A stretch of DNA of 64,000 bases, taken from a virus (lineage: Duplodnaviria; Caudoviricetes). A program made the position numbers and the translations under genes. The notes below the pieces were generated by a model. That model had not been told where the DNA came from and did no database searches. It worked only from the letters and a program-made list of their open reading frames with translations. Below, piece after piece: positions 31,756 to 62,534 of the stretch. The stretch spans positions 1 to 64,000 of IMG/VR virus record IMGVR_UViG_3300027542_000004, one strand, 5' to 3'. Position 1 is the stretch's first letter. Every line of letters begins with the position of its first letter.

Positions 31756-31828
31756 CGCGGGTTGGAGCAGTTGGAAGCTCGCCAGTTTAACTTGCTGGAG
31801 GTCGTCGGTTCGAGTCCGACACCCGCTA
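31756..31828 (+). tRNA. Initiator-like tRNA body with AAC anticodon (reads GUU)
   Basis: C1/U72 mismatch, GCGGGT/ACCCGC stem, A73, D stem GAGC/GCTC, anticodon arm CCAGT-TTAACTT-GCTGG, T arm GTCGG-TTCGAGT-CCGAC; CCA not encoded. Confidence 0.88.
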
Positions 31829-31856
31829 CAAATAAAATCACTTACAAACAAAATCA

Positions 31857-32228
31857 ATGAAAAAGTTAACCCTACAAATTGACAAAAAGTGCTTTCAGGC
31901 AATTCTGAAAGGCGAGCAGAAAGTCGAGCATCGGAACGTGTATCCCAATAACGCCAAGAAGTATGTCATCGAAGAAGACAAGACTGATGAAAACGGCGAA
32001 GCCATCACGGTTGTAACACCGGTTCACTACGATGCCCTCACCCTTATCAATGGTCGCCGCAAGGATGCGCCCCGTCTGACCGTGGAGGTCGTATCGGCTG
32101 AATTTGTCGTACTGACCGACGAAGACGGCAATGATTTGACCTTTGAAGAGAATGGCGAAGTGTACTATGTTTGTCAGGTATGGTACACCCTCGGAAAGGT
32201 TCTTGAAACCGCCAACATCAACGAATAA
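31857..32228 (+). CDS. ASCH/PUA-like domain protein
   Basis: LTLQI.K..F.AIL.G.QK.E.R motif. Confidence 0.7.
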   Translation: MKKLTLQIDKKCFQAILKGEQKVEHRNVYPNNAKKYVIEEDKTDENGEAITVVTPVHYDALTLINGRRKDAPRLTVEVVSAEFVVLTDEDGNDLTFEENGEVYYVCQVWYTLGKVLETANINE

Positions 32229-32255
32229 TCATTAACCCTTTAACACTATAAGTGA

Positions 32256-32456
32256 GTTAAACGTAGAATTGATAACAACTATGGCCCCCGTCGGAACATG
32301 AACGGTGCCGGTGTCGGTGGCCGACTCGTAGCCCGTCGCACCCCTGCGGGCGTAGTTGCTGGTCGTAGCCAGCTCGGAAATCGTGAACAGCGACGCGCTG
32401 ACCTCCGTGCGGCCTTTGCAAAAGAGATTCGCGCCGCTGGTGGAACAACCGGCTAA
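32256..32456 (+). CDS. 66 aa Arg/Gly-rich protein with proposed GTT start (absent from ORF track)
   Basis: TGA-GTT-AAA opens VKRRIDNNYGPRRNMNGAG...GGTTG*; fills the gap between ASCH and PAPS-reductase genes. Confidence 0.65.
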   Translation, partial: VKRRIDNNYGPRRNMNGAGVGGRLVARRTPAGVVAGRSQLGNREQRRADLRAAFAKEIRAAGGTTG

Positions 32457-32468
32457 CGCGACTTTTGC

Positions 32469-33230
32469 ATGAATAGGTACGAAGAAACTATGCAAATAAT
32501 CCGGGGTATCCGTCAACAGACGGATACTGCCGTTTTATTTTATTCAGCCGGTGGAAAAGATGGCATCGCGTTGCTTGATATGCTTTCGCCTATCTTCAAC
32601 AAGGTCATTTGCTATTATATGTGGCTTGTACCGGGTCTTGACCACGTGAAACCCTATCTTCATTGGGCGATAACGAAATACCCGAATGTTGAGATACGTC
32701 AGATTCAGCACTATCAGCGTGATTTCTATGACCGATACGGATTCTTTCAGGAGGGTGATGGCAATCCCGATATTAAGCCTCGCAAGGTAGGCGAAGTTGA
32801 GGAGATGGTGCGTCAGGAAACCGGCATAAAATGGGCTTTCAGTGGGATGAAAGGCGTAGATGGCTATATGAAACGGATGCGTCTTCTGACATTCAAGAAA
32901 CGGAATGGCACATATATCACTGATAAAGGCATGGTCTATCCGCTCGCGGTCTGGACTAACAAAGAAGTTTTGAAATACATAGAGATGCGGAATCTTATCA
33001 AGCCTTTCGTTTACAATCCGAAAGATGTAAGTCAGGGCTTCGGTGTCGATTTGCGCTCGCTCCTTATCCTGCGTCAACGCTTCCCACGCGATTATCAGCG
33101 AACCATACGCGAGTTCCCATTCTGCGAGAAATTGATTTTTGATTATGAAAACGGCATCCTGCCACATGGTCAGGAAAAGGAGGTCGCAGAAATAATCAAG
33201 CGCATTGAAAGAGAATCAGAAGCCGAATAG
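32469..33230 (+). CDS. PAPS reductase-family (PP-loop) protein
   Basis: SAGGKDG, G.K..D...R, YPL..WT..EV..Y. Confidence 0.8.
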   Translation: MNRYEETMQIIRGIRQQTDTAVLFYSAGGKDGIALLDMLSPIFNKVICYYMWLVPGLDHVKPYLHWAITKYPNVEIRQIQHYQRDFYDRYGFFQEGDGNPDIKPRKVGEVEEMVRQETGIKWAFSGMKGVDGYMKRMRLLTFKKRNGTYITDKGMVYPLAVWTNKEVLKYIEMRNLIKPFVYNPKDVSQGFGVDLRSLLILRQRFPRDYQRTIREFPFCEKLIFDYENGILPHGQEKEVAEIIKRIERESEAE

Positions 33231-33234
33231 AGAA

Positions 33235-34119
33235 ATGAAAGAAAATAAGATTAAACAGGCTGAGCAGCGCACGGTAAAAAGAAGCGAAATCAACTTCGCT
33301 TCCTACAATCCGCGTGTCATCAGTGATGATGCAAGAAAGAAGCTCAAGAAAAACTTGCAGACTGTCGGCTTGCTTGGCGGTGTGGTCTGGAACGAGCGCA
33401 CCGGCAACCTTGTATCAGGTCATCAGAAAGTCGGCATCATGGATGCGGTCAACCGCTATGATGCGGAAACGGGCAATAATGATTACGAATTTCGTGTTGA
33501 GGTCGTTGACTTTGACGATAAGACGGAAAAAGAGCAGAACCTCTTTATGAACAACCGAGCCGTGCAGGGTACATACGACGATGATATGCTGCGCGAGCTT
33601 CTTCAAGGAATAGACTATACCAATGCCGGCTTCGACGATACCGATATGCAGCTCCTCGGTCTTGGCGATTTCGGCGACTATGATATGGGCGACATGTTCG
33701 GCGACGATGGCGAAGATGCCACGGATGGCGGCGATGCTGACGCGCCGGGCGAACCCACGGAAAGCAAAGACTGGTCAAAGGGCGATGTTGTCGGCGAGCG
33801 TGAAGACCTTGCAATCCACGATGAAATGACAAAGGAAAGCGGCGAGAATCACAAGCTCGACCGCAGCGCGGATTTTTATCAGGATAGCGAGGCCAACCAG
33901 ATAGCCCGCCACAACGAAGTGCAGAAAATCAAAGACCGCATCGCAAGTCAGAACGACGTGAACAAGGACGGCGGCATGTTGTCCTATGTAGTCATCAGCT
34001 TCAAGACACCGAGCGAGAAAGTCCGCTTCATGGAAGATTACGGCTTCGACCCTATGGCCAAGTACATCAACGGCGAAGAATTTGTAAACAAATTGGAATT
34101 TGGCGATGATGAAGATTAA
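33235..34119 (+). CDS. ParB/Srx-like protein
   Basis: YNPR.I, VWN.RTG.LVSGHQ; acidic linker. Confidence 0.82.
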   Translation: MKENKIKQAEQRTVKRSEINFASYNPRVISDDARKKLKKNLQTVGLLGGVVWNERTGNLVSGHQKVGIMDAVNRYDAETGNNDYEFRVEVVDFDDKTEKEQNLFMNNRAVQGTYDDDMLRELLQGIDYTNAGFDDTDMQLLGLGDFGDYDMGDMFGDDGEDATDGGDADAPGEPTESKDWSKGDVVGEREDLAIHDEMTKESGENHKLDRSADFYQDSEANQIARHNEVQKIKDRIASQNDVNKDGGMLSYVVISFKTPSEKVRFMEDYGFDPMAKYINGEEFVNKLEFGDDED

Positions 34120-34212
34120 CGCAAAAATTTAACTTTATTCTTTAATTTAGTATTGCGCAATTAAAGAATTTTGTTTAACTTTGCATATTATACAGACACT
34201 GACAACAGAGAT

Positions 34213-34668
34213 ATGAACTACCGATTTTTAAGCAGCATAACCGACGCGGAGGTTGCGGATTTTCGCAACAGGCTCGCGGCTGAACTGGCGACACGCATGA
34301 CCGGCGACGGCAAGCGTGTTATCAGTGACGAGGCCATCGGGCAGGAGGTCAACCTTAACATCTCCACGGAAGATGCGAAGAAATATCTGCAAAGCAACGA
34401 CGCGGAGAATTATGACTACGCGCAGCTTGCAGACGTTATCGCGGCCAAGTACCGCACATTCAGCGATGAAGACATCATGGCCACGCGCAAGGCGATGGTC
34501 GATAAATTCATGGCTCTTGCCGATGAGTATGGCTGGGATAAAGAACAGGCACGACGCGATGCCAAAAAGGAGTTTTACGACAACCTTTCTGACGGAACTA
34601 TCCTTGAACTTCTGCGCAATGGCGAGTCGATTGAGGATTATGTCGAATATGTAAGTATTTACGACTGA
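34213..34668 (+). CDS. Acidic hypothetical protein
   Basis: ORF after TAACTTTG promoter at ~34177. Confidence 0.65.
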   Translation: MNYRFLSSITDAEVADFRNRLAAELATRMTGDGKRVISDEAIGQEVNLNISTEDAKKYLQSNDAENYDYAQLADVIAAKYRTFSDEDIMATRKAMVDKFMALADEYGWDKEQARRDAKKEFYDNLSDGTILELLRNGESIEDYVEYVSIYD

Positions 34669-34674
34669 TAGCGA

Positions 34675-35370
34675 GTTAAAAAGCCACGTAAGACAGATTA
34701 TAACGCGAGAGTCACAAAGGCACTCAAGGGAAAGGGCGTACCTCACCTTGAAGAGCCGATGTACCGCGTATCCGCGTCGGCTTTTACAAAGGCTATAAGA
34801 CGCGGCAAGGCATCGCAAGGCAGGAACGGCTGGATGGTTGACCTGCATAGCAAAAGCGAATACAAGCGGATGCGATGCTTTCTTACTCCGGACGGAAAGA
34901 CAGGTGTAGCGATAAAACGCGATGGGGATGTAGTGTCTGTATTCTCCACCAGCGGAAAACGAGGCGCAATGGCAAAAATCATACCGTTTGCGGTCGCTAA
35001 TGGTGGTCGCAAACTGGATTGTTATGCTTTCTCGGATGGCCGCAGTTCACTTCACAACATGTACGGAAGATTCGGCGCAAAGGCTCACGGCAAAATGACC
35101 TTTGACCCGCAATATAATCCTGTTTTCCAACGCACGGCGCAGGCCAATCCCGGTATGCGCAGACCCTCTCATGTCGTGGCGATGACGCTGCCGGGCAGTC
35201 TTGCCGGTGTCATGCGGGCTTACAACGCTGACAGGAAGATTGACCTTGGGCGCGTGAGGTCGTATAATGATTACGACAAGATGATGGATGACTTTCCGCG
35301 CATCTTGCACTACGCGGAAAGTCAAGCGGTGTCAGAGGCGCACTTGGCGGCGGTAAATAACCAACCCTAA
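34675..35370 (+). CDS. Basic protein with GNAT-like domain; proposed GTT start (ORF track starts at ATG 34759)
   Basis: TAG-CGA-GTT-AAA adds 28 in-frame codons; DGDVVSVF...GG.KLDC...Y.RFG resembles a GNAT fold. Confidence 0.65.
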   Translation, partial: VKKPRKTDYNARVTKALKGKGVPHLEEPMYRVSASAFTKAIRRGKASQGRNGWMVDLHSKSEYKRMRCFLTPDGKTGVAIKRDGDVVSVFSTSGKRGAMAKIIPFAVANGGRKLDCYAFSDGRSSLHNMYGRFGAKAHGKMTFDPQYNPVFQRTAQANPGMRRPSHVVAMTLPGSLAGVMRAYNADRKIDLGRVRSYNDYDKMMDDFPRILHYAESQAVSEAHLAAVNNQP

Positions 35371-35382
35371 CACTACAAGAAT

Positions 35383-35976
35383 ATGGCAAAGATTGAAGAA
35401 ATCATCCCGTTCATCCTTTACTTTGAAGCCGGCGTAAACAAACGCTATCTTTCACTTCCTCCCGAACAGATATTTGAGCAGGCGAAAAAGACGGGCTTCG
35501 CAAATGACCCCGACGATGCCGGCGGCGCGACCATGTGCGGTATCACGATAGCGACCTACAAGGCGTACTGCAAGCGGAAAGGCTATCCCGTACCTACGGT
35601 GTTCAGCCTGCGTAACATCACATACAAGCGTTGGCGCGACGTACTCAAGACGCTTTTCTGGGACAGATGGAAAGCCGATGAAATCAAAAGCCAAGCCCTT
35701 GCGAACAACCTCGTCGATTGGGTGTGGGCAAGCGGCGTGAACGGCATCAAGATACCGCAGAGGCTTCTCGGCGTGACACAGGACGGAATTGTCGGCCCAA
35801 AGACGATAGCCGCAGTCAACGCAGCCAACGAAGCGGAACTATTCACGAAGATTTACGAAGCCCGCATCAATTTCGTGGATGGCATCGTGCGCAGAAAGCC
35901 GAGCCAGAAGAAATTCATCAAGGGCTGGAAACGACGTATCAACGCAATCACCCTATCCGGGCTGAAATTCACATGA
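35383..35976 (+). CDS. Endolysin, glycoside hydrolase 108 with peptidoglycan-binding domain
   Basis: E...GFANDPDD.GGAT..GIT, DGIVGPKT, KF.KGW..R. Confidence 0.9.
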   Translation: MAKIEEIIPFILYFEAGVNKRYLSLPPEQIFEQAKKTGFANDPDDAGGATMCGITIATYKAYCKRKGYPVPTVFSLRNITYKRWRDVLKTLFWDRWKADEIKSQALANNLVDWVWASGVNGIKIPQRLLGVTQDGIVGPKTIAAVNAANEAELFTKIYEARINFVDGIVRRKPSQKKFIKGWKRRINAITLSGLKFT

Positions 35977-36251
35977 TGACTTTACGCAAGAAATCCATAG
36001 ATGACATTTACCGACAAGCTCAGTCAATCAAGGTTGAGCTTGCTGGTGGATGTCATTCCAACTGGGTATCATTGATTGATAAAATCTTATATCGCTATAT
36101 TGACAATATTAAAAAATCAGCGGCATACCTACATTGCAAAATAGCCAACCATAGCAGAGAATTAAACTTCAGCGCAGCCGACTTTATCAGGATTAGGAAT
36201 ATTGCTAATAGCCTACAAGTTTATTCCCCGGTTTACATGGGTCTGATATAA
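35973..36251 (+). CDS. Hypothetical protein
   Basis: Coupled ORF (ATGA overlap). Confidence 0.55.
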   Translation: MMTLRKKSIDDIYRQAQSIKVELAGGCHSNWVSLIDKILYRYIDNIKKSAAYLHCKIANHSRELNFSAADFIRIRNIANSLQVYSPVYMGLI

Positions 36252-36263
36252 TCCAATACGACG

Positions 36264-36935
36264 ATGCCGAAGAAGCGAATTAGTAGCAAAACACCGCGCA
36301 AGCCCAAAGCCACACCCTCGTTTGATTACGAGAGTGAGGAATTTTTGTCGCAGGTCGATGCGCTTGCTTTTGAGGGCTTTTACAATACGGAAATTGCTGA
36401 CGAACTGAACATTAGCCGATACGAGTTGGAAATGGCGATTTCACAATGCGAAAAATTGCGCAACACGATAGCGTCTGCACGCGAGCGTGCGCGTGCGCGA
36501 GGCGCAGAAATGCCATCCCCGGCAATGTTTGCAAAAGTCTGGGCGAAGTGCAAGGGAAAGCGCACTCAGCTGATGAAAGAATTTGGAATCGGCTGGACGA
36601 AGCTGCAATCGTGGTTAGCGCAAGAGCCTATTTTCGTCGATATTATGGCGGAACGCGACCTTGAATTTCTGGAACAGATAGACACCGCCAGTCGCATACT
36701 TGCGTTGGGCGGCGTAAAAGGAAAGGATGAATTTAAGGGCTGGAGTCGCTACCCTGACAGTTGGATGATACGCTACCATCTGAATACGCTTGGAAGACGC
36801 TACGGCTATGGCGAGAATCCCATACAGCCGGAAGTCGCCGATGACACTATTCCAAAGGATATTGAACAGGGTATCGACATTGATAGCTGGATTCGTCAAG
36901 AAGTGGAACAAAAGAAACGGGATAAAGAAGAATGA
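36264..36935 (+). CDS. Probable terminase small subunit
   Basis: HTH-like segments; coupled to TerL. Confidence 0.65.
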   Translation: MPKKRISSKTPRKPKATPSFDYESEEFLSQVDALAFEGFYNTEIADELNISRYELEMAISQCEKLRNTIASARERARARGAEMPSPAMFAKVWAKCKGKRTQLMKEFGIGWTKLQSWLAQEPIFVDIMAERDLEFLEQIDTASRILALGGVKGKDEFKGWSRYPDSWMIRYHLNTLGRRYGYGENPIQPEVADDTIPKDIEQGIDIDSWIRQEVEQKKRDKEE

Positions 36936-38230
36936 TTATCAACCATGAGATATATTACCCCCTTTATACTGACAAGGAACATTTCATCATCCTTGTCACG
37001 GGCGGTCGTGGCTCCGGTAAATCATTCGGAATCGGCGGTTTCTTGGAACGCCTATCATTTGAACTGAAACGCAAAGGTCTATCAAAAGCGGAATCGGACA
37101 AGATTGTGCATAAAATCCTCTATACGCGCTACACTATGACCAGTGCGAACATTTCCATTATACCTGAATTTTTGGAAAAGATAGAGCTTGACGGCACGAC
37201 CCGGTACTTCCATACGACCAAAACCGACATCATAAACAAGATGACCGGTAGCCGTATTATGTTCCGTGGCATCAAAACATCATCCGGCAATCAGACCGCA
37301 AAGCTGAAATCCATCCACGGCATCACAACCTTTGTGTGCGACGAGGCCGAGGAGTGGACTTCCGATAGGGAATTTGAAACAATCGCCTTTTCAATCCGTC
37401 AGGTTGGAATCCAGAACAGGATTATCATCATTATGAACCCTACGGATAGCAACCACTTCATCTATCAGAAATACATCAAGGACACGCACAGGATAGAATA
37501 CTTTGACGGAGTGCCGGTGCAGATTTCCACACATCCGCAAGTGCTTCATATCCATACGACGTATCTTGACAACAAGGAAAATCTTTCGGAAGAATTTATC
37601 AGGTCAGCCCAAGAAATGAAAGAGCGCGACCCGGAACGCTACGGCCACATCTTCATGGGTAGATGGGCAGACGTAGCCGAGGGTGCGGTCTTCAAGAAAT
37701 GGGGTATCGTCAGCGAGTTTCCAAAGAACTGCAAGCATGTGGCTCGCGGTCTGGACTTCGGATATTCCAACGATGTCAGCGCATGTGTAAAATGCGGCGT
37801 AGTAGGTAATGACCTATACATCGACGAGCAGATTTTTGAAACCGGACTACTTTCCAAAGACCTCATAAGGAAATTAAGCGAGGATGACTCGTTTGTCTTC
37901 GCCGACAGTGCCGACCCGCGACTGATTGATGAAATCGGGCTGGGTGGTGTAATCATCTACCCTGTGGCGAAGCCAGCCGGAAGCATCATTGCCGGTATTG
38001 AAAAGATGAAATCCTTTGACAACATCTTTGTCACGAAGCGGTCATTGAACGTGCAGGAAGAATTGCGCAACTATGTGTGGGCAAAAGACAAGGATGGCAA
38101 CTACATCAACATGCCGGAAGATGCCAACAACCACTCCATCGACGCGACCCGGTATTACGTGCTTGGCTGCATCCTCGGCAAGATTCTCAAGCCGAAGAAA
38201 GTCAAGAAATCAGATTTAGGAATATTCTAA
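36932..38230 (+). CDS. terL: Terminase large subunit (PBSX-type)
   Basis: GGRGSGKS, DEAEE, NP, GLDFGY, ADSA, NH.IDA.RY. Confidence 0.95.
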   Translation: MIINHEIYYPLYTDKEHFIILVTGGRGSGKSFGIGGFLERLSFELKRKGLSKAESDKIVHKILYTRYTMTSANISIIPEFLEKIELDGTTRYFHTTKTDIINKMTGSRIMFRGIKTSSGNQTAKLKSIHGITTFVCDEAEEWTSDREFETIAFSIRQVGIQNRIIIIMNPTDSNHFIYQKYIKDTHRIEYFDGVPVQISTHPQVLHIHTTYLDNKENLSEEFIRSAQEMKERDPERYGHIFMGRWADVAEGAVFKKWGIVSEFPKNCKHVARGLDFGYSNDVSACVKCGVVGNDLYIDEQIFETGLLSKDLIRKLSEDDSFVFADSADPRLIDEIGLGGVIIYPVAKPAGSIIAGIEKMKSFDNIFVTKRSLNVQEELRNYVWAKDKDGNYINMPEDANNHSIDATRYYVLGCILGKILKPKKVKKSDLGIF

Positions 38231-38241
38231 CAACGCCAGAT

Positions 38242-39699
38242 ATGAATAACTACTTACAGCAAATCTTAACCTATTTCCGCAACCTCACGCTAAATGCGTC
38301 CGGGGTTAGCCGCGACCTGTATCAGCTTTTGCAGGATAAGGACATCAGCCGCGCATTGGATATGCTCCAGAACCGCGATGATGAAGTTGACCAAGCAATC
38401 AAGGAGTATAATCCGCAGACGCATGACGTGATGAAACGCCCCAACAAATTCCGTAAAGGCGATGACCCCTATATCACGGAAAAGTTGCCACGCACACGCG
38501 CCCGCTACATCAACGACATCGAGCTATTCTTCTTGCTCGGCAATCCTATTGAATGGAAGAAAGAAGAGGGCGACGATGAAGCCTTTTCGCTATTCACAGA
38601 TTTTCTGGAAGAGCAGCACTTCAATTCACGCATCCGTCAGGCGAAACGACTTGCCGGCGCGGAAACCGAGTCAGCCCTTATCGCGCACATCTACCGCGAT
38701 GATGATACAGGCGAGCGTCGCGTCAAGCTGAATGTATTGGCGCGTTCCAAAGGCTATCGCCTGCGCCCACTGTTCGACACCATCGGCAACATGACCGCCT
38801 TTGCATACGGATACGTGACGAAAGAACATGGCCGCAGTATTCAGCACTGGGATTTCCAAACACCCAAAATCCTTGCTTACTGCCGTAAGGCGCAAATCGG
38901 ATGGGAAATCGAAATCTATCCCAATCCCACCGGCAAGATAAACGTCATCTACTTTCAGCAGCCAAAGGCATGGGATGGCGCGGAAGCCCGCATCAACCGC
39001 GAGGAGATGCTTGACAGTAAGACCGGCGACACCAACAATTACTTTTCCGACCCCATCGCCGCCGCCACTGCCGACGTCATTCAGACCATGACCGACCCCA
39101 ACAAGCCCGGAAAGCTCATTCAGCTTACAGGCGAAAAGTCAAGGTTTGAGTACGTCAACCCACCGCAGGCATCGCAGACACGCGACGCGGAAAAATCCGA
39201 CCTTTCAAAGAGCATCCTTTTTGATACCTACACCCCGGATTTTGACACCGAGGCCATGCGTGGCTTCGGCACGCTTTCCGGTGTGGCAATCCGCAACGCT
39301 TTCATTCTTGGCTACATCAAGCGCGACAACCGCAAAGAAATCTACGATGAACTTGTGGGCCGTTTCCGCAATATCGTTATCGCCATACTTGCATACGAGC
39401 ATCCCGATAAGAGAAAAGCTCTGGAGTCACTCAAAATCAAATTTGAATTTGCGGAACCATTCGCCGATGACAAGCAGGCGAAGTGGCAGTCCATCGCAAG
39501 CCTGTATCAAGCCGGTCTGATTTCGTTGGAAACCGCCGTGACCATGTTGTCGCTGACCGATGCACCAGAAGAAGAAATCGCTCGCCTCCTCGCGGCTTCC
39601 GCACAGAAGCAACAGCAGGGTCAGCAGCCTTCCGCAAACAAAGAAGACAATCCGGCACAACCCCCTGTAAATATTCCGCGAGAACCTATATCAGCATAA
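38242..39699 (+). CDS. Portal protein (SPP1-like)
   Basis: Follows TerL; 485 aa; LSGVA and G.ISLETA motifs. Confidence 0.85.
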   Translation: MNNYLQQILTYFRNLTLNASGVSRDLYQLLQDKDISRALDMLQNRDDEVDQAIKEYNPQTHDVMKRPNKFRKGDDPYITEKLPRTRARYINDIELFFLLGNPIEWKKEEGDDEAFSLFTDFLEEQHFNSRIRQAKRLAGAETESALIAHIYRDDDTGERRVKLNVLARSKGYRLRPLFDTIGNMTAFAYGYVTKEHGRSIQHWDFQTPKILAYCRKAQIGWEIEIYPNPTGKINVIYFQQPKAWDGAEARINREEMLDSKTGDTNNYFSDPIAAATADVIQTMTDPNKPGKLIQLTGEKSRFEYVNPPQASQTRDAEKSDLSKSILFDTYTPDFDTEAMRGFGTLSGVAIRNAFILGYIKRDNRKEIYDELVGRFRNIVIAILAYEHPDKRKALESLKIKFEFAEPFADDKQAKWQSIASLYQAGLISLETAVTMLSLTDAPEEEIARLLAASAQKQQQGQQPSANKEDNPAQPPVNIPREPISA

Positions 39700-50064: not shown

Positions 50065-51339
50065 TTATTGTTCAGAAGTTATTTCCTCATTATCAATGGT
50101 CAACGCGCAGAAGCCTTTACAAGCTCCACGGAAACCATTGTGGTATTCTTTGGCAGTCATACGCTTCTTGTTTGGCAACTGCAAAATATCAATCGAAAGC
50201 AACATATCCTGACAGGCGACCATCAGTTTGCCATTCTCCCAGAACCATTCTCCGGGTGCGCGGAAGCCGCGAGGAATGTCAGTAAGACTTGCCTTGTGAA
50301 TCTTCACATCGGTTGCGGAATCTGCCTCAAGCAACCTTACCGAAGTCCATGCAGTCGGCACTGACCCTGCGATAGCCGGGGTCTTTGGATATTGTTCGCC
50401 ACAAATAACTGATGAATGGGCGCGTATGAAGTTATGAACGACTTCTGCGGAATCAGTCCAACGGATAAAGGCATCATTGCGGTAGAGCTTGGGCGCATGG
50501 CTCGGTTGAAAGAAATCGCATATAAGTTCTGACTGCGGAACTCCATTGCACGAATGACCAATACGCTGGATTGCATCATCCATCATATCCGCACCGAAAT
50601 TGCGAAGTCTGATATGCACTTCTTCCGCGCTTTCTTCCGGGCCTATGTAGATTCCGAGGTTGTTGATGATTTTGCCTGTATCCACACCCTTATCGATTAC
50701 GAAAGTGGTGATGCCGGTCATCGCGCTTCCGTCCTTGATTGCGGATGTGATAGTGGATGCGCCCCGGTACATTGGAAGAAGCGATGAATGGAGATTGATG
50801 ACTCCCCATTTAGGTATGCGGAACAATTCAGATGGTAATATGCAGTATTCAACCACAACTCCCAACGTGGGATTCAGATTGCGGATTTTTTGAAGAAAAG
50901 ATTCTGATTTAAGTTGAAGATGCGATGGCTGATATACAAGAAGACCTGCCTCTTCCGCATAAACACTGACAGGTGATGGGCAACACTTGTTTCCGCGACC
51001 GCAAGGCTTATTCTCCATAGTCACGACAGCAGCCACATCATATCCCTTTTCAACGAGCATCTTTAGAGTCGGCACAGCGAAATGTCCGTTTCCGAAAAAT
51101 ACAATCCTGATATTATTCCGATTCACCGGCTTTTCTTGGTCATATTCGGGATAAGCCGATATTGCGTCTTCCGGAACAATGCTATATCCATCGGCCTGAT
51201 TGACCTTAACTAAGTAATTGCCATCTTCATCCGGGCAAAGGATTCTGCACGGCACGAAAAACTGATTTTCAAATTGGTCGCCGGCGCAATGCCCAACCAC
51301 ATTTACCAAATGACCAACGCGGTATCTTGGAGCTTTCAT
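50065..51339 (-). CDS. fmt: Methionyl-tRNA formyltransferase homolog with N-terminal extra domain
   Basis: IVFFG...FAVP.L, VVT...KP.GRG, INLH.SLLP.YRGA, G.DTG, APK, C-terminal LQLP.KKRM. Confidence 0.88.
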   Translation of the reverse strand: MKAPRYRVGHLVNVVGHCAGDQFENQFFVPCRILCPDEDGNYLVKVNQADGYSIVPEDAISAYPEYDQEKPVNRNNIRIVFFGNGHFAVPTLKMLVEKGYDVAAVVTMENKPCGRGNKCCPSPVSVYAEEAGLLVYQPSHLQLKSESFLQKIRNLNPTLGVVVEYCILPSELFRIPKWGVINLHSSLLPMYRGASTITSAIKDGSAMTGITTFVIDKGVDTGKIINNLGIYIGPEESAEEVHIRLRNFGADMMDDAIQRIGHSCNGVPQSELICDFFQPSHAPKLYRNDAFIRWTDSAEVVHNFIRAHSSVICGEQYPKTPAIAGSVPTAWTSVRLLEADSATDVKIHKASLTDIPRGFRAPGEWFWENGKLMVACQDMLLSIDILQLPNKKRMTAKEYHNGFRGACKGFCALTIDNEEITSEQ

Positions 51340-51605
51340 TTTGATGAACCGGTCTGGATGTCGATACGTGCGCCGCACTGCGGACAGATGATGATAGCGG
51401 AATTTGGCTCAAGGTAATCTGTGAATAAAGAAGATACCGGCACTTCCAGCACTTTTGCAATTCGCTCAAGCGTGGATATGTTAGGATTGCCCTTTTCATT
51501 AACGATGTTGCCGAGTGTCTGAGGGGTGATTCCCATCTTTTCCGCGAGGCTTTTAAGGGTCATGCCCTTAGCAGCGACAATGTTCTTGATTCTGAATTTT
51601 GCCAT
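51336..51605 (-). CDS. XRE HTH regulator with zinc ribbon, coupled to fmt
   Basis: GMTLKSLAEKMGITPQ...NP.ISTLERIA; CPQCG; ATGA overlap with fmt. Confidence 0.88.
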   Translation of the reverse strand: MAKFRIKNIVAAKGMTLKSLAEKMGITPQTLGNIVNEKGNPNISTLERIAKVLEVPVSSLFTDYLEPNSAIIICPQCGARIDIQTGSSK

Positions 51606-54349: not shown

Positions 54350-54359
54350 CCCGGAAACC

Positions 54360-54397: not shown

Positions 54398-54412
54398 ATT
54401 ATCCTTGAAACG

Positions 54413-54877: not shown

Positions 54878-54896
54878 CTTAATATCATAAAACAAA

Positions 54897-56027
54897 ATGA
54901 AATTTACCATCAACAGTAAGGCTCTTTTGAGCCGTCTGGTTGCCGCCGGCAAAGCCGTAAGCAACCGACCCACGATTTCCATTCTGGGCAATTTCATGTT
55001 CGCCCTTGATGGGAAGACCGTCACAATCACCGCATCCGATACCGACAACGTGGTAATATCGCGCATTGAAGCCAACGATGCCGAGGGTGCTGGTAGTGTC
55101 TGCATCGATGCAAAGCGCGTCACGGAACTGCTCAAGGCAATGCCGGATTGCCCCGTGGTGTTTGACATCAACGATTCAACCCACGCAACCATCATCCGCT
55201 ACACCAACGGAAAATACAATCTGTCTGGTCTGCCCACCATAGACTATCCCATTGGCGAGGCTGACGAAACGGAAGTCAAGGGCGTATTCACAATGCCAGC
55301 TTCGCAGATTCTCAAGGCACTGGATGTTGTCGGCTTCGCTACATCCAACGATGAACTCCGCCCCATGCTGAACGGAGTGTATTGGGATATTACGGAAGAT
55401 GCCGTTACATTCGTGGCAACCGACACCCATGTACTTGCAAAGTATCGTAGTACGCAGACCGCCCCCGGCAAGGTCATGAGCTTCAATCTGCCCAGTAAGT
55501 CAATCGCGCTTATCCGTGCGTTCATCGGAAAGCAGAGCGACATAAAGCTGACGGTCAGCGAAAGATTCGTCATCTTTGAGGGTAGCGACTTCAAGGTGCG
55601 CTCTACGCTTTATAATGGAATGTACCCGAACTACAACCGCGTTATTCCCGTCAATCAGCCCATCTCTATCACGGTTGACCGCATGGACTTCGCTAACGCT
55701 ATCACACGTGTTGCCATCTGCGCTGACGCACAGACACCGGTGCTTCGCCTCAAGATTGCAGACGGAAAGATTGACATCGTGGCGCAGGACATCAGCTTCA
55801 ACATCGGCGGCGAGGAGAAAGTGACGTGCGACTACAACGGAACACCGCTTGAAATCGGATTCAGTTCAATCTACCTCAAGGGCGTACTTAACGCGATGAA
55901 CACGCAGAACGTCGTGATAAAGCTGGCGGAGGCAAGCCGACCCGGATTGTTCCTACCCGCTGAAAACGACGAATACGGCGAACTTACGCTTTTGTGTATG
56001 CCCATAAATATCCAGCAAACGACTTAA
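54897..56027 (+). CDS. dnaN: DNA polymerase III beta sliding clamp
   Basis: 376 aa; DELRP.LNGV, VATD.H.L, YPNY.RVIP, IGF, MP. Confidence 0.93.
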   Translation: MKFTINSKALLSRLVAAGKAVSNRPTISILGNFMFALDGKTVTITASDTDNVVISRIEANDAEGAGSVCIDAKRVTELLKAMPDCPVVFDINDSTHATIIRYTNGKYNLSGLPTIDYPIGEADETEVKGVFTMPASQILKALDVVGFATSNDELRPMLNGVYWDITEDAVTFVATDTHVLAKYRSTQTAPGKVMSFNLPSKSIALIRAFIGKQSDIKLTVSERFVIFEGSDFKVRSTLYNGMYPNYNRVIPVNQPISITVDRMDFANAITRVAICADAQTPVLRLKIADGKIDIVAQDISFNIGGEEKVTCDYNGTPLEIGFSSIYLKGVLNAMNTQNVVIKLAEASRPGLFLPAENDEYGELTLLCMPINIQQTT

Positions 56028-56326
56028 TGGGAAAAGAAAGAGGCGATTTAGCCGTAGGCAGAAAGTTCAATTTCAGAAACCATCACATCTATGCTTGTCA
56101 ACATGGGATTGATACCCAAGAGATGCTTAAACAGGTTATAAAGCAGGAAAAGGAATGGTGCGAAAGGAGCATATTCCTTGCAATTCAGCTCCATAATCTG
56201 ATTGAATATGACGTAGAGGTGGATGATAATTATGAAGTGACTATTCATGCACGGCTTCGGGGCGTTGTGCCGCCCGAAAAGATGGAAGATGTAAGACGCC
56301 AGTCTAATGAAGAAAGCAATAAATAA
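56027..56326 (+). CDS. Hypothetical protein
   Basis: TAATG-coupled ORF. Confidence 0.55.
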   Translation: MGKERGDLAVGRKFNFRNHHIYACQHGIDTQEMLKQVIKQEKEWCERSIFLAIQLHNLIEYDVEVDDNYEVTIHARLRGVVPPEKMEDVRRQSNEESNK

Positions 56327-56450
56327 AATCAAAGACATCCTATTTGGGATTTTCGCAATTATCGTCTGTCTTATTCTTGCCGTCGTGCTTTGGCTGACGG
56401 GAGATAAGATGGATGATGATTACGACCCGTGGGATTGCTATCAGTAAGCT

Positions 56451-56906
56451 ATGCAGAGAATCATTAAATTTCGCGGAAAATCCGTTGCTGACGGTACATG
56501 GGTCTATGGCGACTTAATCCACATGAAAGGACGCAAGGTTGCGATATGGCCCACGGAAGAGAAATACGATGGTGGCGCGATTGAGGTTATACCCGCTTCG
56601 GTGGGTCAGTACACCAATTCACGCGACTGCCTCAAGAAAGAAATCTACGAGGGTGACATTGTGCGCCAGAAATGGGAAACCACAGTGATAGATGAACACG
56701 ATGACGCATATTCAGCAAAAGGAACGCAGACCGGAATTGTGGTGCTACGCACGAGGGGAGTCTGCATGTCACCCTGCCTGAAAGAAAACGACCTTACGGA
56801 AGATGCGCTGCTGACAAAGAATGTACCTGTTACCGGGTGGCGTTCTGAAATCATCGGCAATACAACCGACAATCCCTCACTATTTGAGGAAATCTGTAAC
56901 CCTTAA
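56451..56906 (+). CDS. YopX-family protein
   Basis: IKFRGK...WVYGDL, VGQYT...D....EIYEGDIV, EIIGN. Confidence 0.9.
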   Translation: MQRIIKFRGKSVADGTWVYGDLIHMKGRKVAIWPTEEKYDGGAIEVIPASVGQYTNSRDCLKKEIYEGDIVRQKWETTVIDEHDDAYSAKGTQTGIVVLRTRGVCMSPCLKENDLTEDALLTKNVPVTGWRSEIIGNTTDNPSLFEEICNP

Positions 56907-56925
56907 CCAATTAACCCCAACTGCA

Positions 56926-57627
56926 ATGAAAAAGTACATCGGTACGAAGACGCTTAACGCCGAGCCTATGACAAAGGGCGAGGCTTATGACCGTTCTTTA
57001 CTGCGTGGTGGAATAACACCCGTAGAGCGTGAAATCCTCGGCTATCATGTCGTTTATCCTGACGGCTATGAAAGCTGGTCGCCCAAAGACGTATTTGATG
57101 CGGCCTACAATGTCGCCGACACATTACTTGACCGCCTTAACATCGAATACAAAGAGCTTGACAAGAAAGCCGGCAAAATCGTTGAGTTCAGACTGACGGA
57201 AGCCTATAAGAATCTGCGCGACACCGACCGCGCCATGCTTGATGTTCAGTTCGACACCATGATTAGCTATCTGAGCATCCTCGGTTGTCGCTCTACATCA
57301 GTGGAAACAGGTCAGGGCGGCTTCTGCGGTCTTGACTTCGGCACGGCAATCCATCTCCTTGAACGTGGATACGTCATCCGTCGCAGCGGATGGAACGGCA
57401 AGGATATTGTCGTGTTCAAGCAAGTGCCGTCAAGCATCAAGAGCGACATCATTCCCAACATGCAATCCCTGCCCCTCAAGGCTAAAGAACTTATCATGGC
57501 CGGAAACAAGCGTATAGACTACACCTCGCAGTGTCTTATCTATAACACGAAGACTGGTCGCGCCGATAGTTGGGTTCCATCTATCAGCGACGTGTTCGCC
57601 CATGACTGGGAGCTTGTAGCCGACTAA
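56926..57627 (+). CDS. Multi-domain protein with C-terminal DUF2829 (Tad2-like) domain
   Basis: DFG.AI..L..G..IRR.GWNGK...WVPS.SD.FA.DWE; N-terminal Y.DGY.SWSPK.VF..AY. Confidence 0.78.
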   Translation: MKKYIGTKTLNAEPMTKGEAYDRSLLRGGITPVEREILGYHVVYPDGYESWSPKDVFDAAYNVADTLLDRLNIEYKELDKKAGKIVEFRLTEAYKNLRDTDRAMLDVQFDTMISYLSILGCRSTSVETGQGGFCGLDFGTAIHLLERGYVIRRSGWNGKDIVVFKQVPSSIKSDIIPNMQSLPLKAKELIMAGNKRIDYTSQCLIYNTKTGRADSWVPSISDVFAHDWELVAD

Positions 57628-57665
57628 TCAATCATCCTATCTACCACGTGTAGAAAAGGAAACGG

Positions 57666-57702
57666 CGGCGTAGGCCGCGACAAGTCTGCGCCGCCTGCTT
57701 TT
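57666..57702 (+). terminator. Probable terminator
   Basis: GGCGGCGTAGGC...GTCTGCGCCGCC followed by T-rich tail. Confidence 0.55.
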
Positions 57703-57725
57703 ACCAATCACTAACATCACAAGAA

Positions 57726-59202
57726 ATGAGCAAGCAAGAACTTATAGAAGCATTGGAAAGTATGCCCGACGATGCCGTACTCTTTGTGGATGGCGGCTTT
57801 TACAATCTGGTTGAGGTCAGCAATGTAAAATACGACCCGTCGCAGAATATTATCGTCATCGAATAAAGTTATGACCGAGGAAGAAAAACGCGAGGCTTAC
57901 GTCCGCACGGTGTTTGCCGGAAATGATGGCGACGTGTTCACGCGAAGCGACCTCCGCGCCTACATTGAAGAAGCATGGTCTGCCGGCTATGATGAGGGTG
58001 CGCGTGATTTTGGCGACACGGTAACGAATTATCCATTTCCATTAAGCGTATGGCCAACGCCCCTTTCCCGTTTTCAAGCCGATAAGCTGGCTAAAGAATT
58101 TGAAGCCCTTGACGAGATATGCAAGGACAGCGGATGTCGGGATGCGCTTATAAAAACGCTTTTTGAAGAAGCGGAAAAACAAGCCGAAGCGTTTATGCCA
58201 CGTGACCTTATCGGCTCGGTTGAATACTTCGGCGACAAGTTAAAACTATTAAGACTGAAATCAAATGAACGAACAGACGGAAAACAGCAAAGCAACTCTT
58301 AAAGACTGGCTAACATTCATCATCTTCACAATAGTAATCCTTTCATTAGGTATCATAGCCGGTTTTTCAGCGGGAAGAAAACACCCGGCAGCATCGGTTA
58401 AGGATGAATGGCTGTCAGATGTGCGCAAGGAGGTTAATCTCTTGGAGTCATCTTTCAAGGAAGCGGAAGAAGAATATCAGTTTGGCATCGAACTGCGCGA
58501 CTCCATCATTACCGCCATGAAGCGCGAAATCAGAAAAGGCGACAACGCCGAAGTTCCTATCAAAGTAAATATCAACATTACCGATGATAATAGCAAATAA
58601 AGACCTTGTAAGTGGTGATTACGTCAATCTTGATGCTGCTATTGCCTTGAGTAAGGTTGGCTATGACGTGCCGACGCATACTCATTACACCGGATATAAG
58701 GGTTACGGAAGCGTCAGCCTTACATCCAACACTGAAAAGCTGACAGGTGTAGGCAGTATGGTTGATAGACCCATCTTGCAAAAGGCGGTGGAATGGCTGC
58801 GCGAGCGTCGCAACATCTGCCTACGCATCAACTACGTCATGCAGACGCGCAAGTGGTTTTTCGACTACCTGAATATGAAAGATGGGAGCTATGACGATAG
58901 CACATCCACCTACGATGACACAACGGGCTATTACGATAGTTACAACGATGCCGTCAACGCCGGAATAGTTGCCATCTGCGAACACATCAAGGACAATGAA
59001 GATACGACAGGCGAAGAAAATCCTATTGGGTAAGAATACATCCCGCGACTGCTACCGCCGTATGCGCCCCGCCTATGAACGCGAAGACGGCACTATGGTA
59101 TTTCCATCATGGCATGACATTCCACGGATAGCAAGGGTGAACAAACGACTACTCAGATACATTAACCGATTAAGCAATGAAGACAAAGAAAAACTTCTTT
59201 AA
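57726..59202 (+). CDS. Run of hypothetical ORFs (57726-57866, 57871-58302, 58265-58600, 58584-59033, 58996-59202)
   Basis: Overlapping plus-strand ORFs; 58265 has a TM helix. Confidence 0.6.
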
Positions 59203-60010
59203 GGGTAAATCCTTATACCGACCCACCGGCAAGGCTGGCGAATATTCCGCTTGGGCTTGCAACTTCTATACCGGGTGTTCAAATAACTGTTCATACTGCT
59301 ACTGCAAGCGTGGCGTTATGAGCCATGTATGGAGCGAAGAGCCGATGTTTAAAAAATGCTTCAAGGACAACGACCATGCCATAGCGGTGTTTGAAAAGGA
59401 AATGCTCGCAAACATCGACGAACTGCGTAAGACGGGCATCTTTTTCAGCTTCACTACCGACCCCATGATACCCGGCAAGACGCTTGAGCTTACGATGGAA
59501 GCGGTCAGCCTTGGGCTGCGTAATGACGTGCCGGTGCAGATACTTACCAAACGTGCGGATTGGCTTGATGCCGAGACGTGGAAAGCCATGTGCGCTACCA
59601 TCAATCCCGACTACAAGAAAATCGCCATTGGCTTCACACTGACAAGGCGTGATGACCTTGAGCCGGGTGCAAGTCCGCATACGGAACGCATAGCCGCCAT
59701 GAAGCGTTGTCACGAACTGGGATGTCACACTTTCGCAAGTATTGAGCCGATTGTCGATATAGCCAATTCGGAATGGGCGATGAGTGATGCCTATCCCTAC
59801 TGCGAACTGTTCAAGGTTGGTCTGATGAGCGGCGGCGCGAAACCCGACAAGCACGAACTGAAAACACTTGTTGACAGATGGAATAGCACACTTGACAAGT
59901 CAGGCAAGAAGATATATTGGAAGCAGAGCGTAGTTGACTATCTGGGCGATGATTTCACGTTCTGGATGGACTCCTGCGTAGATGCCGACTACAACATATT
60001 CGACTATTAG
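59177..60010 (+). CDS. Radical SAM protein (spore-photoproduct-lyase-like branch)
   Basis: N.YTGCSNNCSYCY, FTTDP, ILTK, EPGAS, SIEP. Confidence 0.82.
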   Translation: MKTKKNFFKGKSLYRPTGKAGEYSAWACNFYTGCSNNCSYCYCKRGVMSHVWSEEPMFKKCFKDNDHAIAVFEKEMLANIDELRKTGIFFSFTTDPMIPGKTLELTMEAVSLGLRNDVPVQILTKRADWLDAETWKAMCATINPDYKKIAIGFTLTRRDDLEPGASPHTERIAAMKRCHELGCHTFASIEPIVDIANSEWAMSDAYPYCELFKVGLMSGGAKPDKHELKTLVDRWNSTLDKSGKKIYWKQSVVDYLGDDFTFWMDSCVDADYNIFDY

Positions 60011-60214
60011 TATTGTTTTAAGGTAAATAAGATTGTTATTATAAATTGTACTTTTGCGGAGCGTGTCGTTGTGAAACGGTGCGCTTTTTTCGTTCTATTC
60101 CGTAGAAAGTTACGACCAAATAAATAAAGTCGTGAGTGTGCGTTTCCTTAATAATGTGGTTGCTTTATTTAGTCGTAGTTTTGCGTAGAATACTTAAACC
60201 CCAAACTACATCCA

Positions 60215-60961
60215 ATGAAAGCTAAAATCTTTGCAAAACTAAAACAGGAGTATTCCTCTCTTGGGTTAGGCGATGAATATCTGATGTCAAAAGCCGATTC
60301 CCTTGCAGCGACCGGTCTTGTGACTGACGATAACATCGATGCTGTCGTGGCTTGCCAGCGTAAGGAGCTTGAGGGTCTTCAGAAAGCCAACGATAAGCGC
60401 GTCACTGATGCGCTTGAAAAAGAGCGTAAGAAGCATGAAGAAGAAACTCGCAAAAAGGAGCAGGAAGCCGAAGAAGCCCGTCGCAAAGCCGAGGAAGAAG
60501 CCGCCGCCAAAAAGAAAGGCGAGCATACCGACCCGGTTACAAACCCCGACGTTGAAGCCCTCCGCAAGCAGGTGGAAGAGCTGACCGCCGCCGGCAAGAA
60601 GCGCGACGAAGAATATGCGGCCAACCTGAAAACGCTTACCGAATCACGTGACAGTCTTGGAAAGCAGGTCAAGGAACTTGTTGACAAGAACGCCGCATCG
60701 GAAGCAGCCGCAGCCAAGGCAGCACGCAATGCGATGATAATGGCGAAAGCCAAAGAGTTGGGCGTTCCCCAGTGGCGTATCGACGAGGGCTTCACAATCG
60801 CGGAAGACGCGAGCGAGGAGGTCATCACCGAAACGCTGACAAAGGTTGCGAACAATATCAACACAAACATCCTGCCGGGTAGTCGTGGCGGATTCCCCCT
60901 CGCCGGCAACGAGCCGACTAAGGAAGACCTCGCTTCGATAGCTGCAAGCCTTGTTAAGTAA
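60215..60961 (+). CDS. Probable capsid scaffolding protein
   Basis: Coiled-coil, Lys/Glu-rich; first head gene. Confidence 0.7.
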   Translation: MKAKIFAKLKQEYSSLGLGDEYLMSKADSLAATGLVTDDNIDAVVACQRKELEGLQKANDKRVTDALEKERKKHEEETRKKEQEAEEARRKAEEEAAAKKKGEHTDPVTNPDVEALRKQVEELTAAGKKRDEEYAANLKTLTESRDSLGKQVKELVDKNAASEAAAAKAARNAMIMAKAKELGVPQWRIDEGFTIAEDASEEVITETLTKVANNINTNILPGSRGGFPLAGNEPTKEDLASIAASLVK

Positions 60962-60983
60962 CAACTAAACCCCAACGAGAATT

Positions 60984-61430
60984 ATGAAAAATGACATCTC
61001 ACCCAACAAGGAAACGGTTGTCTTCGGTAATGATTCCTCAGTAATCCGCAAGTACATTGCCGGCATCGCCGGTGGTCGTACACTGGACTGCTCGGATTTT
61101 GTCGATGACACTGTTCTCGCCGGCCACGTCATCATCAAAAAGGCCGACGGAAAGTATGCCCCGATGCCCGTCATCGCGGCTGTTCCCGCGAAGCCCGCAC
61201 AGGGCGAAAACCCTACTGTTGCGGCTCAGCCCGCCAAGTACGGCACACTCCCTACCGGCGCATCCTACGCCGGCGTTCTCTATCGCTCAATCAGTAAGAA
61301 AAACCCCGCTGCTTCCATTATGACGATAGGTATTGTCAATCCCGACATGACCCCCTATCCCATGACAGACATCCTGACCGCGTTCACGGCTGCCTGCAAA
61401 ATTTCCTTTGAAAAGGACGAAGAAGCATAA
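60984..61430 (+). CDS. Probable head decoration protein
   Basis: Between scaffold and capsid; GGRTLD, AGH.II, GVL motifs. Confidence 0.65.
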   Translation: MKNDISPNKETVVFGNDSSVIRKYIAGIAGGRTLDCSDFVDDTVLAGHVIIKKADGKYAPMPVIAAVPAKPAQGENPTVAAQPAKYGTLPTGASYAGVLYRSISKKNPAASIMTIGIVNPDMTPYPMTDILTAFTAACKISFEKDEEA

Positions 61431-61445
61431 AAACCGAGTATCTGA

Positions 61446-62534
61446 GTTAAACAGTCATTCTATTTCGATTACGCGCAGAAATACTTCCCCGGCCTCGTTC
61501 TGGCCGTGGTTGAACGTCTGAACGAAAAGCGCAACAACTCCGCGCAGACGTATCTCTACAAAGAGAAACTTCGCCCCCAGTTCTCGCTTGATGGTCGCTG
61601 GGCTTCCATTCTTGCCGAATACACCCGTGTAGCCGCCGACGTTGTGGCACTTGACTCCGAGCTTCCGCTCAAGAGCCGTGACACGCTGGAGGTTGCTTCC
61701 GGCACTATCCCCAAGATAGGTATGAAGCTCTACCTGACCGAAAAGCAGATGAAGGACGTTGATTCGATGATTGCACAGGGTCTTCCCCTTGAAACCATCA
61801 TCAACAACATCTTCGCCGACACCCCCCGTTGCATCGAGGGCATCTGGGAGCGCATCGAAGACATCTTCCTTTCCGAGCTTTCGTCCGGCGTGGGCATTTC
61901 CGAACGTAACAACGGCACCGGCGTGCGCATCAACATGAACTTCTATGAGGCCAATCAGTTCCTCGTATCGGCTCTGTGGAGCGCAACTACCGCCACACCG
62001 CTTGACGACATTCAGAAAGTCGTTGACAAGTCCATCGAAGACTCCAACACCATCATCGACGCATACGCCGACGATACCGCCCTCCAGCTTCTTTACAAGA
62101 ACGGTCAGGTGCGTGCGCAGTTTGCCTTTGACCAAGGCATCGCCATGACTGCATCAACAGCCATCCCCGTGCTTGACCTTTCCAAGCTCCAGCAGCTTTT
62201 CCTCACCAAGTGGAACATCCGTCTGCACCGCGTTTCGCGCCGTGTGAAGACCGAGCTTAACGGAGTTAAGCAGAACCACAACCCGTGGAAGAAAGGCACT
62301 ATTACCTTTGTCTGCGATGAAGAGCTTGGCTCGCTTGTATGGACTAACGTCGCCGAAGTCAACCGCCGTGTTGATGGTGTAGTCTATCAGGTAGCCGACG
62401 AATACATCCTTGCAAAGAAGTATTCCAAGACAGACCCCCTCCGCGAGTTCACCGCTTCCGAGGCTATGGTTGTCCCCGTGTTGAACAACGTTGACCGTAT
62501 CTATACGCTCGACTCTCAGACTGTTCAGGAATGA
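61446..62534 (+). CDS. Major capsid protein; proposed GTT start (ORF track uses GTG 61506)
   Basis: ~362 aa in head operon; frame opens at TGA-GTT-AAA 15 nt after the previous stop. Confidence 0.8.
   Translation, partial: VKQSFYFDYAQKYFPGLVLAVVERLNEKRNNSAQTYLYKEKLRPQFSLDGRWASILAEYTRVAADVVALDSELPLKSRDTLEVASGTIPKIGMKLYLTEKQMKDVDSMIAQGLPLETIINNIFADTPRCIEGIWERIEDIFLSELSSGVGISERNNGTGVRINMNFYEANQFLVSALWSATTATPLDDIQKVVDKSIEDSNTIIDAYADDTALQLLYKNGQVRAQFAFDQGIAMTASTAIPVLDLSKLQQLFLTKWNIRLHRVSRRVKTELNGVKQNHNPWKKGTITFVCDEELGSLVWTNVAEVNRRVDGVVYQVADEYILAKKYSKTDPLREFTASEAMVVPVLNNVDRIYTLDSQTVQE

Follow-up and report, generated by a model that had tools for sequence, protein, structure and literature searches.

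A candidate phage translation initiation system with an initiator-like tRNA(AAC), GUU-started genes and a formyltransferase homolog

To our knowledge, all natural initiator tRNAs known so far carry the anticodon CAU and start at AUG-type codons. Phages are known to switch the code with suppressor tRNAs, as when crAss-like and Lak phages recode stop codons in their late genes. In E. coli, pairing at initiation can extend beyond the start triplet, with mRNA position -1 pairing with tRNA position 37. One report describes an engineered E. coli initiator tRNA (i-tRNA) with the anticodon AAC, which boosts initiation at GUU only and gives valine and formyl-valine N-termini; E. coli Fmt is there given an approximately 60-fold lower Vmax on Val-tRNAfMet, and extra Fmt helps initiation (Hutvagner et al., 10.1101/2021.05.25.445580). 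Here, a window of 64,000 nucleotides is analysed, which covers the opening 64 kb of a viral record of 96,654 bases (IMG/VR record IMGVR_UViG_3300027542_000004, Caudoviricetes; linear, estimated 86% complete). The window carries a tRNA with the anticodon AAC, genes that open at GTT and an Fmt homolog. We consider it very probable that this phage brings its own initiator tRNA, a copy of a Bacteroidales tRNA-fMet with the anticodon arm replaced, which reads GUU start codons and would be charged with valine and formylated by the phage Fmt. A phage-supplied initiator tRNA had been suggested in an initial annotation of the window, and the sequence comparisons below support that interpretation; the support does not extend to the purposes named there, a translational late switch and evasion of host defences. 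The present phage record is labelled G000, and other G and L labels denote compared genomes and loci.

The features of the candidate system are the following, with positions in the window unless marked otherwise:
31756..31828, plus strand: initiator-bodied tRNA with valine anticodon AAC (ARAGORN, Rfam, sequence reading and host comparison)
32256..32456, plus strand: 66-codon Arg-rich open reading frame (ORF) with a TGA-GTT opening, conserved beside the tRNA
34675..35370, plus strand: 231-codon gene with a CGA-GTT opening, first canonical start 28 codons on
50065..51339, minus strand: phage-type methionyl-tRNA formyltransferase homolog, 424 amino acids from ATG 51339 (Pfam, TIGR00460, 1fmt)
61446..62534, plus strand: major capsid gene (Phage_cap_E / PHROG 29) with a TGA-GTT opening, GTG 61506 being the first canonical start, 20 codons on
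genome position 64260, just beyond the window: tail-tube-like gene with a CGA-GTT opening

An initiator tRNA body with a valine anticodon

The tRNA at 31756-31828 is the sole standard tRNA found in the window with ARAGORN and Rfam. ARAGORN calls it tRNA-Val(aac) at 31756-31829, and the Rfam tRNA match covers 31756-31828 (48.6 bits). Read from the sequence, C1 stands unpaired opposite U72, and G2-C71, C3-G70, A11-U24 and A73 are all present, as the initial annotation had listed along with the anticodon AAC. The anticodon stem is CCAGU/GCUGG, with A-U, G-C and U-G pairs where three G-C pairs would be expected, the loop reads UU-AAC-UU, and CCA is not encoded in the gene. G2-C71, C3-G70 and A73 are formyltransferase determinants, and A35, C36 and A73 are identity elements for valyl-tRNA synthetase (ValRS).

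Aligned with the Lepagella tRNA-fMet, the phage tRNA has only 4 of 17 positions identical within the anticodon arm and 49 of 56 in the rest of the molecule. Host initiators of four genomes share 46-49 of 56-57 positions with the phage tRNA outside this arm. The acceptor stem, D arm, variable region and T arm are near-identical to those of host tRNA-fMet (Lepagella, Paramuribaculum, Bacteroides), including the unpaired 1:72 position, G2-C71, C3-G70, A11-U24 and A73. The anticodon arms differ, however: the host arm has CAU in the loop CU-CAU-AA above three G-C pairs, and the phage arm has AAC in the loop UU-AAC-UU above A-U, G-C and U-G pairs. Thus, with a near-identical body and a different anticodon arm, the phage tRNA is, by sequence, derived from a Bacteroidales host initiator tRNA in which the anticodon arm has been replaced.

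The wider family was searched with patterns fixed in the 5' half of the molecule (positions 2, 3 and 11, and partly 70, 71, 73 and 24), with column 72 left free. At least 100 IMG/VR contigs carry the tRNA under the anticodon-free pattern, and 80 loci among the matches listed have NAC without exception (71 GAC, 6 AAC and 3 UAC). A pattern with the whole loop free returned the same loci among the matches listed, and UU-NAC-UUG is found in all 93 readable loci. Prophages in Bacteroides, Parabacteroides, Muribaculaceae and Hallella genomes also hold members of the family. Among 24 distinct family sequences, the unpaired 1:72 position, A11-U24 and the acceptor-stem Fmt determinants are each kept in 24/24. 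All 20 cloverleaf pairs are 100% paired in this set, 11 of them with changes on both sides. Pair 29:41 is A-U in 18 sequences, G-C in five and U-A in one, and 31:39 is U-G in 23/24.

The molecule thus has the unpaired 1:72 position, the G2-C71, C3-G70, A73 and A11-U24 determinants and the cellular initiator ancestry of an initiator tRNA, but its anticodon is AAC rather than CAU. It shares with an elongator tRNA-Val the valine anticodon NAC with A73. A paired 1:72 position and a purine at 37 are general features of elongators; in this family, however, 1:72 is unpaired (24/24) and position 37, normally a purine, is U in 93 loci, which is unusual.

The same tRNA body with a purine at position 36 had no match in the IMG/VR scan, in which Ile-type anticodons (NAU other than CAU) fell outside the search. 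No GenBank phage record holds this tRNA, the five weak matches being other tRNAs. Other unusual tRNAs were seen. Two IMG/VR contigs carry an initiator-bodied tRNA (C1xA72, with CCA encoded) with the anticodon CGU, which reads ACG (L261:683-758 and L262:7316-7391) and is labelled tRNA-Thr by ARAGORN. ACG is a known near-cognate start codon. An initiator-bodied tRNA with C1xU72, a UU..UU-type loop and the anticodon GCU (Ser AGC/AGU) is found in a metagenome-assembled genome (MAG) of Pukyongia sp., Flavobacteriaceae (L160:1428-1500), and may represent another private start codon. In MT835576 (L001:14002-14076), ARAGORN predicts a tRNA with a four-base anticodon (tggt) within a cluster of five tRNAs, and the capsid gene there starts with ATG.

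GTT-opened genes and covariation with the anticodon

In this phage, GA-GTT stands at the opening of four genes that have no usable canonical start (32256, 34675, 61446 and 64260). The initial annotation had named three frames opening at GA-GTT-AAA just after an in-frame stop, and these are found as described at 32256, 34675 and 61446, each 0-1 codons past the stop, with the first canonical start 14 (ATG 32298), 28 (ATG 34759) and 20 (GTG 61506) codons downstream. All three remain on the list, to which the tail tube at 64260 has to be added; this fourth gene came from a stop-to-stop ORF table of the whole record together with comparison with relatives. The AAA that follows GTT in the window varies among orthologs.

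The capsid gene was compared across 18 loci, obtained by tblastn against GenBank phages and from the IMG/VR scan. GTT is found at the codon aligned with 61446 in 10/18 loci, all with 72-100% identity, and ATG at exactly that codon in the other 8/18, all with 33-64% identity. The N-terminal extension is conserved, as the initial annotation had proposed to check, and the ATG-started N-termini MEKSFYF and MNESLFI are homologous to VKQSFYF in the window. Since the aligned codon is ATG with a homologous N-terminus in relatives, the extension is, by this alignment, coding sequence, and one clade has exchanged the canonical start for GTT. The flanks of the 10 GTT loci vary, with TGA or AGA before and AAA, AAT or ACA after the triplet; in G003 and G005 the triplet follows AGA, with no stop. 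The tRNA(AAC) is present in 4/5 records with a GTT capsid, the fifth being a 66%-complete fragment, and two phages with an ATG capsid (both estimated 100% complete) carry the homologous tRNA with the anticodon GAC.

The tail tube shows a similar division. The eight closest of 80 IMG/VR relatives (at least 77% identity) open at GA-GTT, and the remaining 72 (at most 64% identity) have ATG 3-8 residues before the same conserved motif. The next canonical start of the G005 tail tube is 75 codons downstream. Positions 3-176 of the 178 in the PHROG 14600 profile align to residues 6-179 of the GTT-started tail tube, covering the extension.

In the small ORF at 32256, the 14 codons ahead of the internal ATG are conserved as protein, and 7 of the 13 codons that differ there between G000 and G008 are synonymous. 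The 231-amino-acid gene at 34675 has a homolog in G003 (41% identity) that opens at AGA-GTT; its relatives are G003 and near-identical sequences alone, with no ATG-started ortholog found for comparison. A label of GNAT-like given to it by the initial annotation could not be upheld, as Pfam, NCBIfam and Atlas assign it to no family and PHROGs only to a family of unknown function.

Across the tRNA family, anticodon base 34 matches the third base of the start codon in three states: AAC with GTT, GAC with GTC and UAC with GTA. This covariation among relatives had been put forward as a check of the initial annotation. For the small ORF in IMG/VR, GA-GTT is found at 5/5 AAC loci and GA-GTC at 47/48 GAC loci where the ORF was found, the script having taken the wrong Val in the remaining one; 27 of the 80 loci listed gave no such ORF. 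In bacterial genomes, the small ORF has GTT at 4/4 AAC loci and GTC at 5/5 GAC loci. The three UAC loci have GA-GTA starts, one of them in a capsid homolog whose next canonical start is 24 codons on.

GA precedes every proposed start, and position -3 and the second codon vary. As GA stands before only 5/91 ordinary ATG starts of this phage, it is not a general start context. U37 and U38 are invariant in the tRNA family, and on sequence could pair with A-1 and G-2. A longer pairing, over 8-10 nt, and conservation of AAA as the second codon were considered and rejected; the bases after GTT vary (AAA, AAT, ACA, GAA, CAG, GCA), and only G-2 and A-1 are invariant. Two other candidates were also rejected: readthrough or fusion with the upstream gene, which is in the same frame in the window but separated by 2-3 stops, and in G003 has its stop in another frame; and ATC, two codons before the capsid GTT, as a start, with TGA lying between in the window and in L009.

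Besides 32254, 34673 and 61444, the string GAGTTAAA is found at 17282 and 39738, a count that by itself is not significant in the window (5 versus 2.29 expected, with at least 5 reached in 7/100 shuffles). AGTTAAA has 19 copies versus 9.8 expected, part of the excess arising because it is the reverse complement of the plus-strand box TTTAACTTTG. This box has five exact plus-strand copies (window 17336, 30641, 34174, 42048 and 48591), located in longer conserved leaders before plus-strand operons, and 21 matches with at most one mismatch versus 6.7 expected. It probably serves as a phage promoter, with the form of a Bacteroidetes -7 box.

Small, very basic proteins that start VRRRK or VRRK and often end in GG also open at GA-GTN near the tRNA module; they were found by searching for the GA-GTN motif and are thus not independent support. 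An ORF at genome positions 65225-65500 (L167:1225-1500) is conserved in its N-terminal part and has a start codon in none of the relatives, among them phages that do not carry the tRNA; we take it for a probable frameshifted tail assembly chaperone following the tail tube, outside this system.

Neighbouring features on the plus strand, and the VRRRK/VRRK proteins of other genomes, are the following:
30641..30650, plus strand: promoter-like box TTTAACTTTG, approximately 1.1 kb upstream of the tRNA on the same strand
31857..32228, plus strand: 123-amino-acid gene directly 3' of the tRNA (PHROG 625, function unassigned), with an ASCH domain as a lead only; the synteny of tRNA, this gene and the small GTN-start ORF is conserved
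G003 44501; G005 15837 and 16159; G008 25609 and 26617; L081 5478 and 5778: VRRRK/VRRK proteins opening at GA-GTN, found also in G007

The Fmt homolog and the genomic setting

The Fmt homolog that the initial annotation placed at 50065-51339 has both Pfam domains above their cut-offs: Formyl_trans_N (3.4e-30, 105.6 bits, cut-off 26.1) and Formyl_trans_C (6.6e-14, 52.4 bits, cut-off 21.1). In the alignment with 1fmt (E 2.5e-37), the Fmt-specific insertion loop and the HxSLLPxxRG and DTG motifs are aligned; we take the His and Asp residues of these motifs to be the catalytic ones. The protein is extended at its N-terminus by approximately 88 residues, carries an insertion in its C-terminal half and is approximately 40% identical to host Fmt. 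A structure model built from a three-sequence alignment is unusable overall (mean pLDDT, the predicted local distance difference test, 47), although the N-terminal 60 residues are modelled as resembling a small beta domain (pLDDT approximately 70).

Fmt is present in G000, G003 and G005 and in 4/5 genomes with a tRNA(AAC) prophage, and absent from G006, G007 and G008 and from 5/5 genomes with a tRNA(GAC) prophage. By this sequence comparison, phage-type Fmt travels with the AAC class only. No match to peptide deformylase was found in G000, G003, G005, G007 or G008. The gene adjoining Fmt is the following:
51336..51605, minus strand: Cro/CI-type helix-turn-helix gene at a divergent intergenic region, with an end that overlaps the Fmt start by 4 nt

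The record encodes a lambda-E-type major capsid protein, a tape measure protein and Cro/CI-type regulators. Its relatives are classed as proviruses, but the label of prophage used in the initial annotation is not carried over to this linear IMG/VR contig of 96,654 bases. The same tRNA is found in Lepagella muris, Paramuribaculum intestinale, another Muribaculaceae isolate and Bacteroides MAGs, and thus the host is most likely a member of the Muribaculaceae or another Bacteroidales gut bacterium. An integration site may be marked by the tRNA-Ser(CGA) found at genome positions 95028-95115 (minus strand), 1.5 kb before the record ends. A tRNA-like element of 124 nt is also found at window positions 3077-3200 (plus strand; Rfam tRNA 35.2 bits, missed by ARAGORN), with good acceptor, D and T arms, approximately 38 nt in place of the anticodon arm and a 24-nt variable insert; G002 and G003 have similar matches.

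Mechanism, rival explanations and known systems

The expression of the tRNA, its valine charging and formylation, its entry into the P site, the extended pairing and any regulatory purpose are what we infer from these comparisons. As all family members keep A35, C36 and A73, host ValRS would charge the phage tRNA with valine. The phage Fmt homolog would then formylate it by way of the retained acceptor-stem determinants. The tRNA would enter the P site at GA-GUU, where the triplet would pair with A34, A35 and C36, and the preceding GA with U37 and U38, giving a five-base start signal that may hold the tRNA in place of the three G-C pairs. Four genes would depend on the tRNA, among them the capsid and tail-tube genes, whose products are the two most abundant proteins of the virion, and sister phage lineages would follow the same plan with the pairs GAC/GUC and UAC/GUA. 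A phage Fmt in the lineage with GUU capsid and tail-tube genes has a rationale, since E. coli Fmt is slow on Val-tRNAfMet and extra Fmt aids initiation.

Several observations weigh against a phage initiator tRNA of this kind. The three consecutive G-C pairs of the anticodon stem (29-41, 30-40 and 31-39), all present in host initiators, are absent from 24/24 family members, and this is a real difficulty for a simple initiator model: an E. coli initiator without them is reported to be formylated but not to initiate (PMC6393288). Only a small number of lineages contribute to the covariation (one AAC clade, a few GAC groups and two UAC types), so that independent events are few, and the fixed 5' half of the search patterns limits how broadly the family was sampled. 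No clear depletion of GAGTT or GAGTC is seen inside genes, with GAGTT having 37 sense-strand copies in G000 genes, four of them in frame; the five-base motif thus cannot be the sole start determinant, and other features are needed. The small ORF keeps an in-frame ATG at codon 15 in every relative seen, and a start there is also possible. The Fmt homolog scores 189 bits against TIGR00460, below the equivalog cut-off of 201.5, although this is still by far its best family, and GAC-class phages manage without Fmt.

The missing G-C pairs, required for initiation in E. coli, also speak for another explanation, in which the GTT genes are started by the host initiator tRNA, either as a weak near-cognate or through termination-reinitiation, and the phage tRNA serves as a decoy or replacement against an anticodon nuclease or as an extra valine elongator. 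The native E. coli initiator starts weakly at GUU with Met N-termini, according to the engineering report (10.1101/2021.05.25.445580), and in the window an in-frame stop is found 0-1 codons away from each of the three GTT sites. A host-tRNA mechanism does not, however, predict that the third start base should track anticodon base 34 in three states. The capsid GTT of G003 and G005 follows AGA with no stop, the upstream stop of G003 being in another frame; a capsid protein has to be made in large amounts, and the unpaired 1:72 position and initiator body speak against use as an elongator. We regard this explanation as unlikely.

It is also rather improbable that the tRNA is a working private initiator of which the details differ, being left unformylated, with Fmt acting on another substrate or in lysogen physiology, or being charged with an amino acid other than valine. 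Complete GAC-class phages with GTC starts have no Fmt, and in the present phage the Fmt gene follows a Cro/CI-type gene and is encoded on the other strand from the tRNA, at a distance from it; the score below the equivalog cut-off and the extra N-terminal domain point in the same direction. This reading is nevertheless argued against by the alignment of the insertion loop and catalytic motifs with E. coli Fmt and by the retention of the acceptor-stem determinants in 24/24 tRNAs. The free-anticodon pattern yields NAC alone among the loci listed, as expected if ValRS must recognise A35 and C36.

That the genes start instead at ATG 32298, ATG 34759 and GTG 61506, with the upstream stretch an untranslated leader and GAGTT a regulatory RNA or DNA element, would agree with the in-frame canonical start found 14-28 codons on in each ORF and with the conserved ATG of the small ORF, but is highly improbable, as the 20 capsid codons before the GTG can be aligned residue by residue to the ATG-started relatives from their N-termini on, the tail-tube extension lies within its family profile, the G005 tail tube would lose 75 codons, and 7/13 differing codons ahead of the small ORF ATG are synonymous.

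Returning to the phage initiator tRNA, a broader proposal is offered tentatively, as possible but on balance somewhat doubtful. This would be natural orthogonal initiation, in which a five-base GA-GUN word is read by anticodon bases 34-38 (NACUU), the extra pairing replaces the three G-C pairs as the licence for P-site entry, and the AAC, GAC and UAC classes are lineage-private start codons. The AAC lineage would have moved its capsid and tail tube onto its private codon and gained a formyltransferase suited to valine.

If true, the most abundant structural genes of these phages stand on a codon from which the host cannot start, an initiation counterpart of phage stop-codon recoding, and such a system would offer synthetic biology an orthogonal initiator already optimised by nature, together with the formyltransferase that matches it. 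Gene callers would then annotate these phages wrongly, making the capsid short by 20 residues here and the tail tube of G005 by 75. The system also raises the question of P-site entry by a tRNA that lacks the three G-C pairs in Bacteroidota, where Shine-Dalgarno pairing is little used.

A literature search found no natural precedent or phage system, only the engineered E. coli i-tRNA(AAC), a man-made system that is the closest working analogue. The two have in common an initiator body with AAC and GUU starts, and formylation of Val-tRNA is limiting in the engineered case. The engineered tRNA, by the same report, keeps the E. coli anticodon stem-loop with the anticodon alone changed, and is approximately 100-fold weaker than AUG. 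The phage system, by contrast, is natural, with the whole anticodon arm replaced, U37 and U38, start sites marked by a conserved GA, essential virion genes that would depend on it and an Fmt homolog of its own. That homolog resembles E. coli Fmt (PDB 1FMT/2FMT; TIGR00460) in its two-domain architecture, insertion loop and HxSLLPxxRG and DTG motifs, but differs in the N-terminal extension of approximately 88 residues, the insertion in the C-terminal half and a presumed substrate of Val-tRNA instead of Met-tRNA. As in the extended pairing of E. coli, bases flanking the start triplet would pair with loop bases next to the anticodon; here, however, two flanking bases (G-2 and A-1) are invariant, as are U37 and U38, and the pairing would involve both. 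Phage stop-codon recoding is similar in that a phage tRNA alters codon reading in phage genes, often structural ones, which are unreadable without it. That recoding acts at stop codons in elongation, whereas the present system would act at initiation, with a new start codon.

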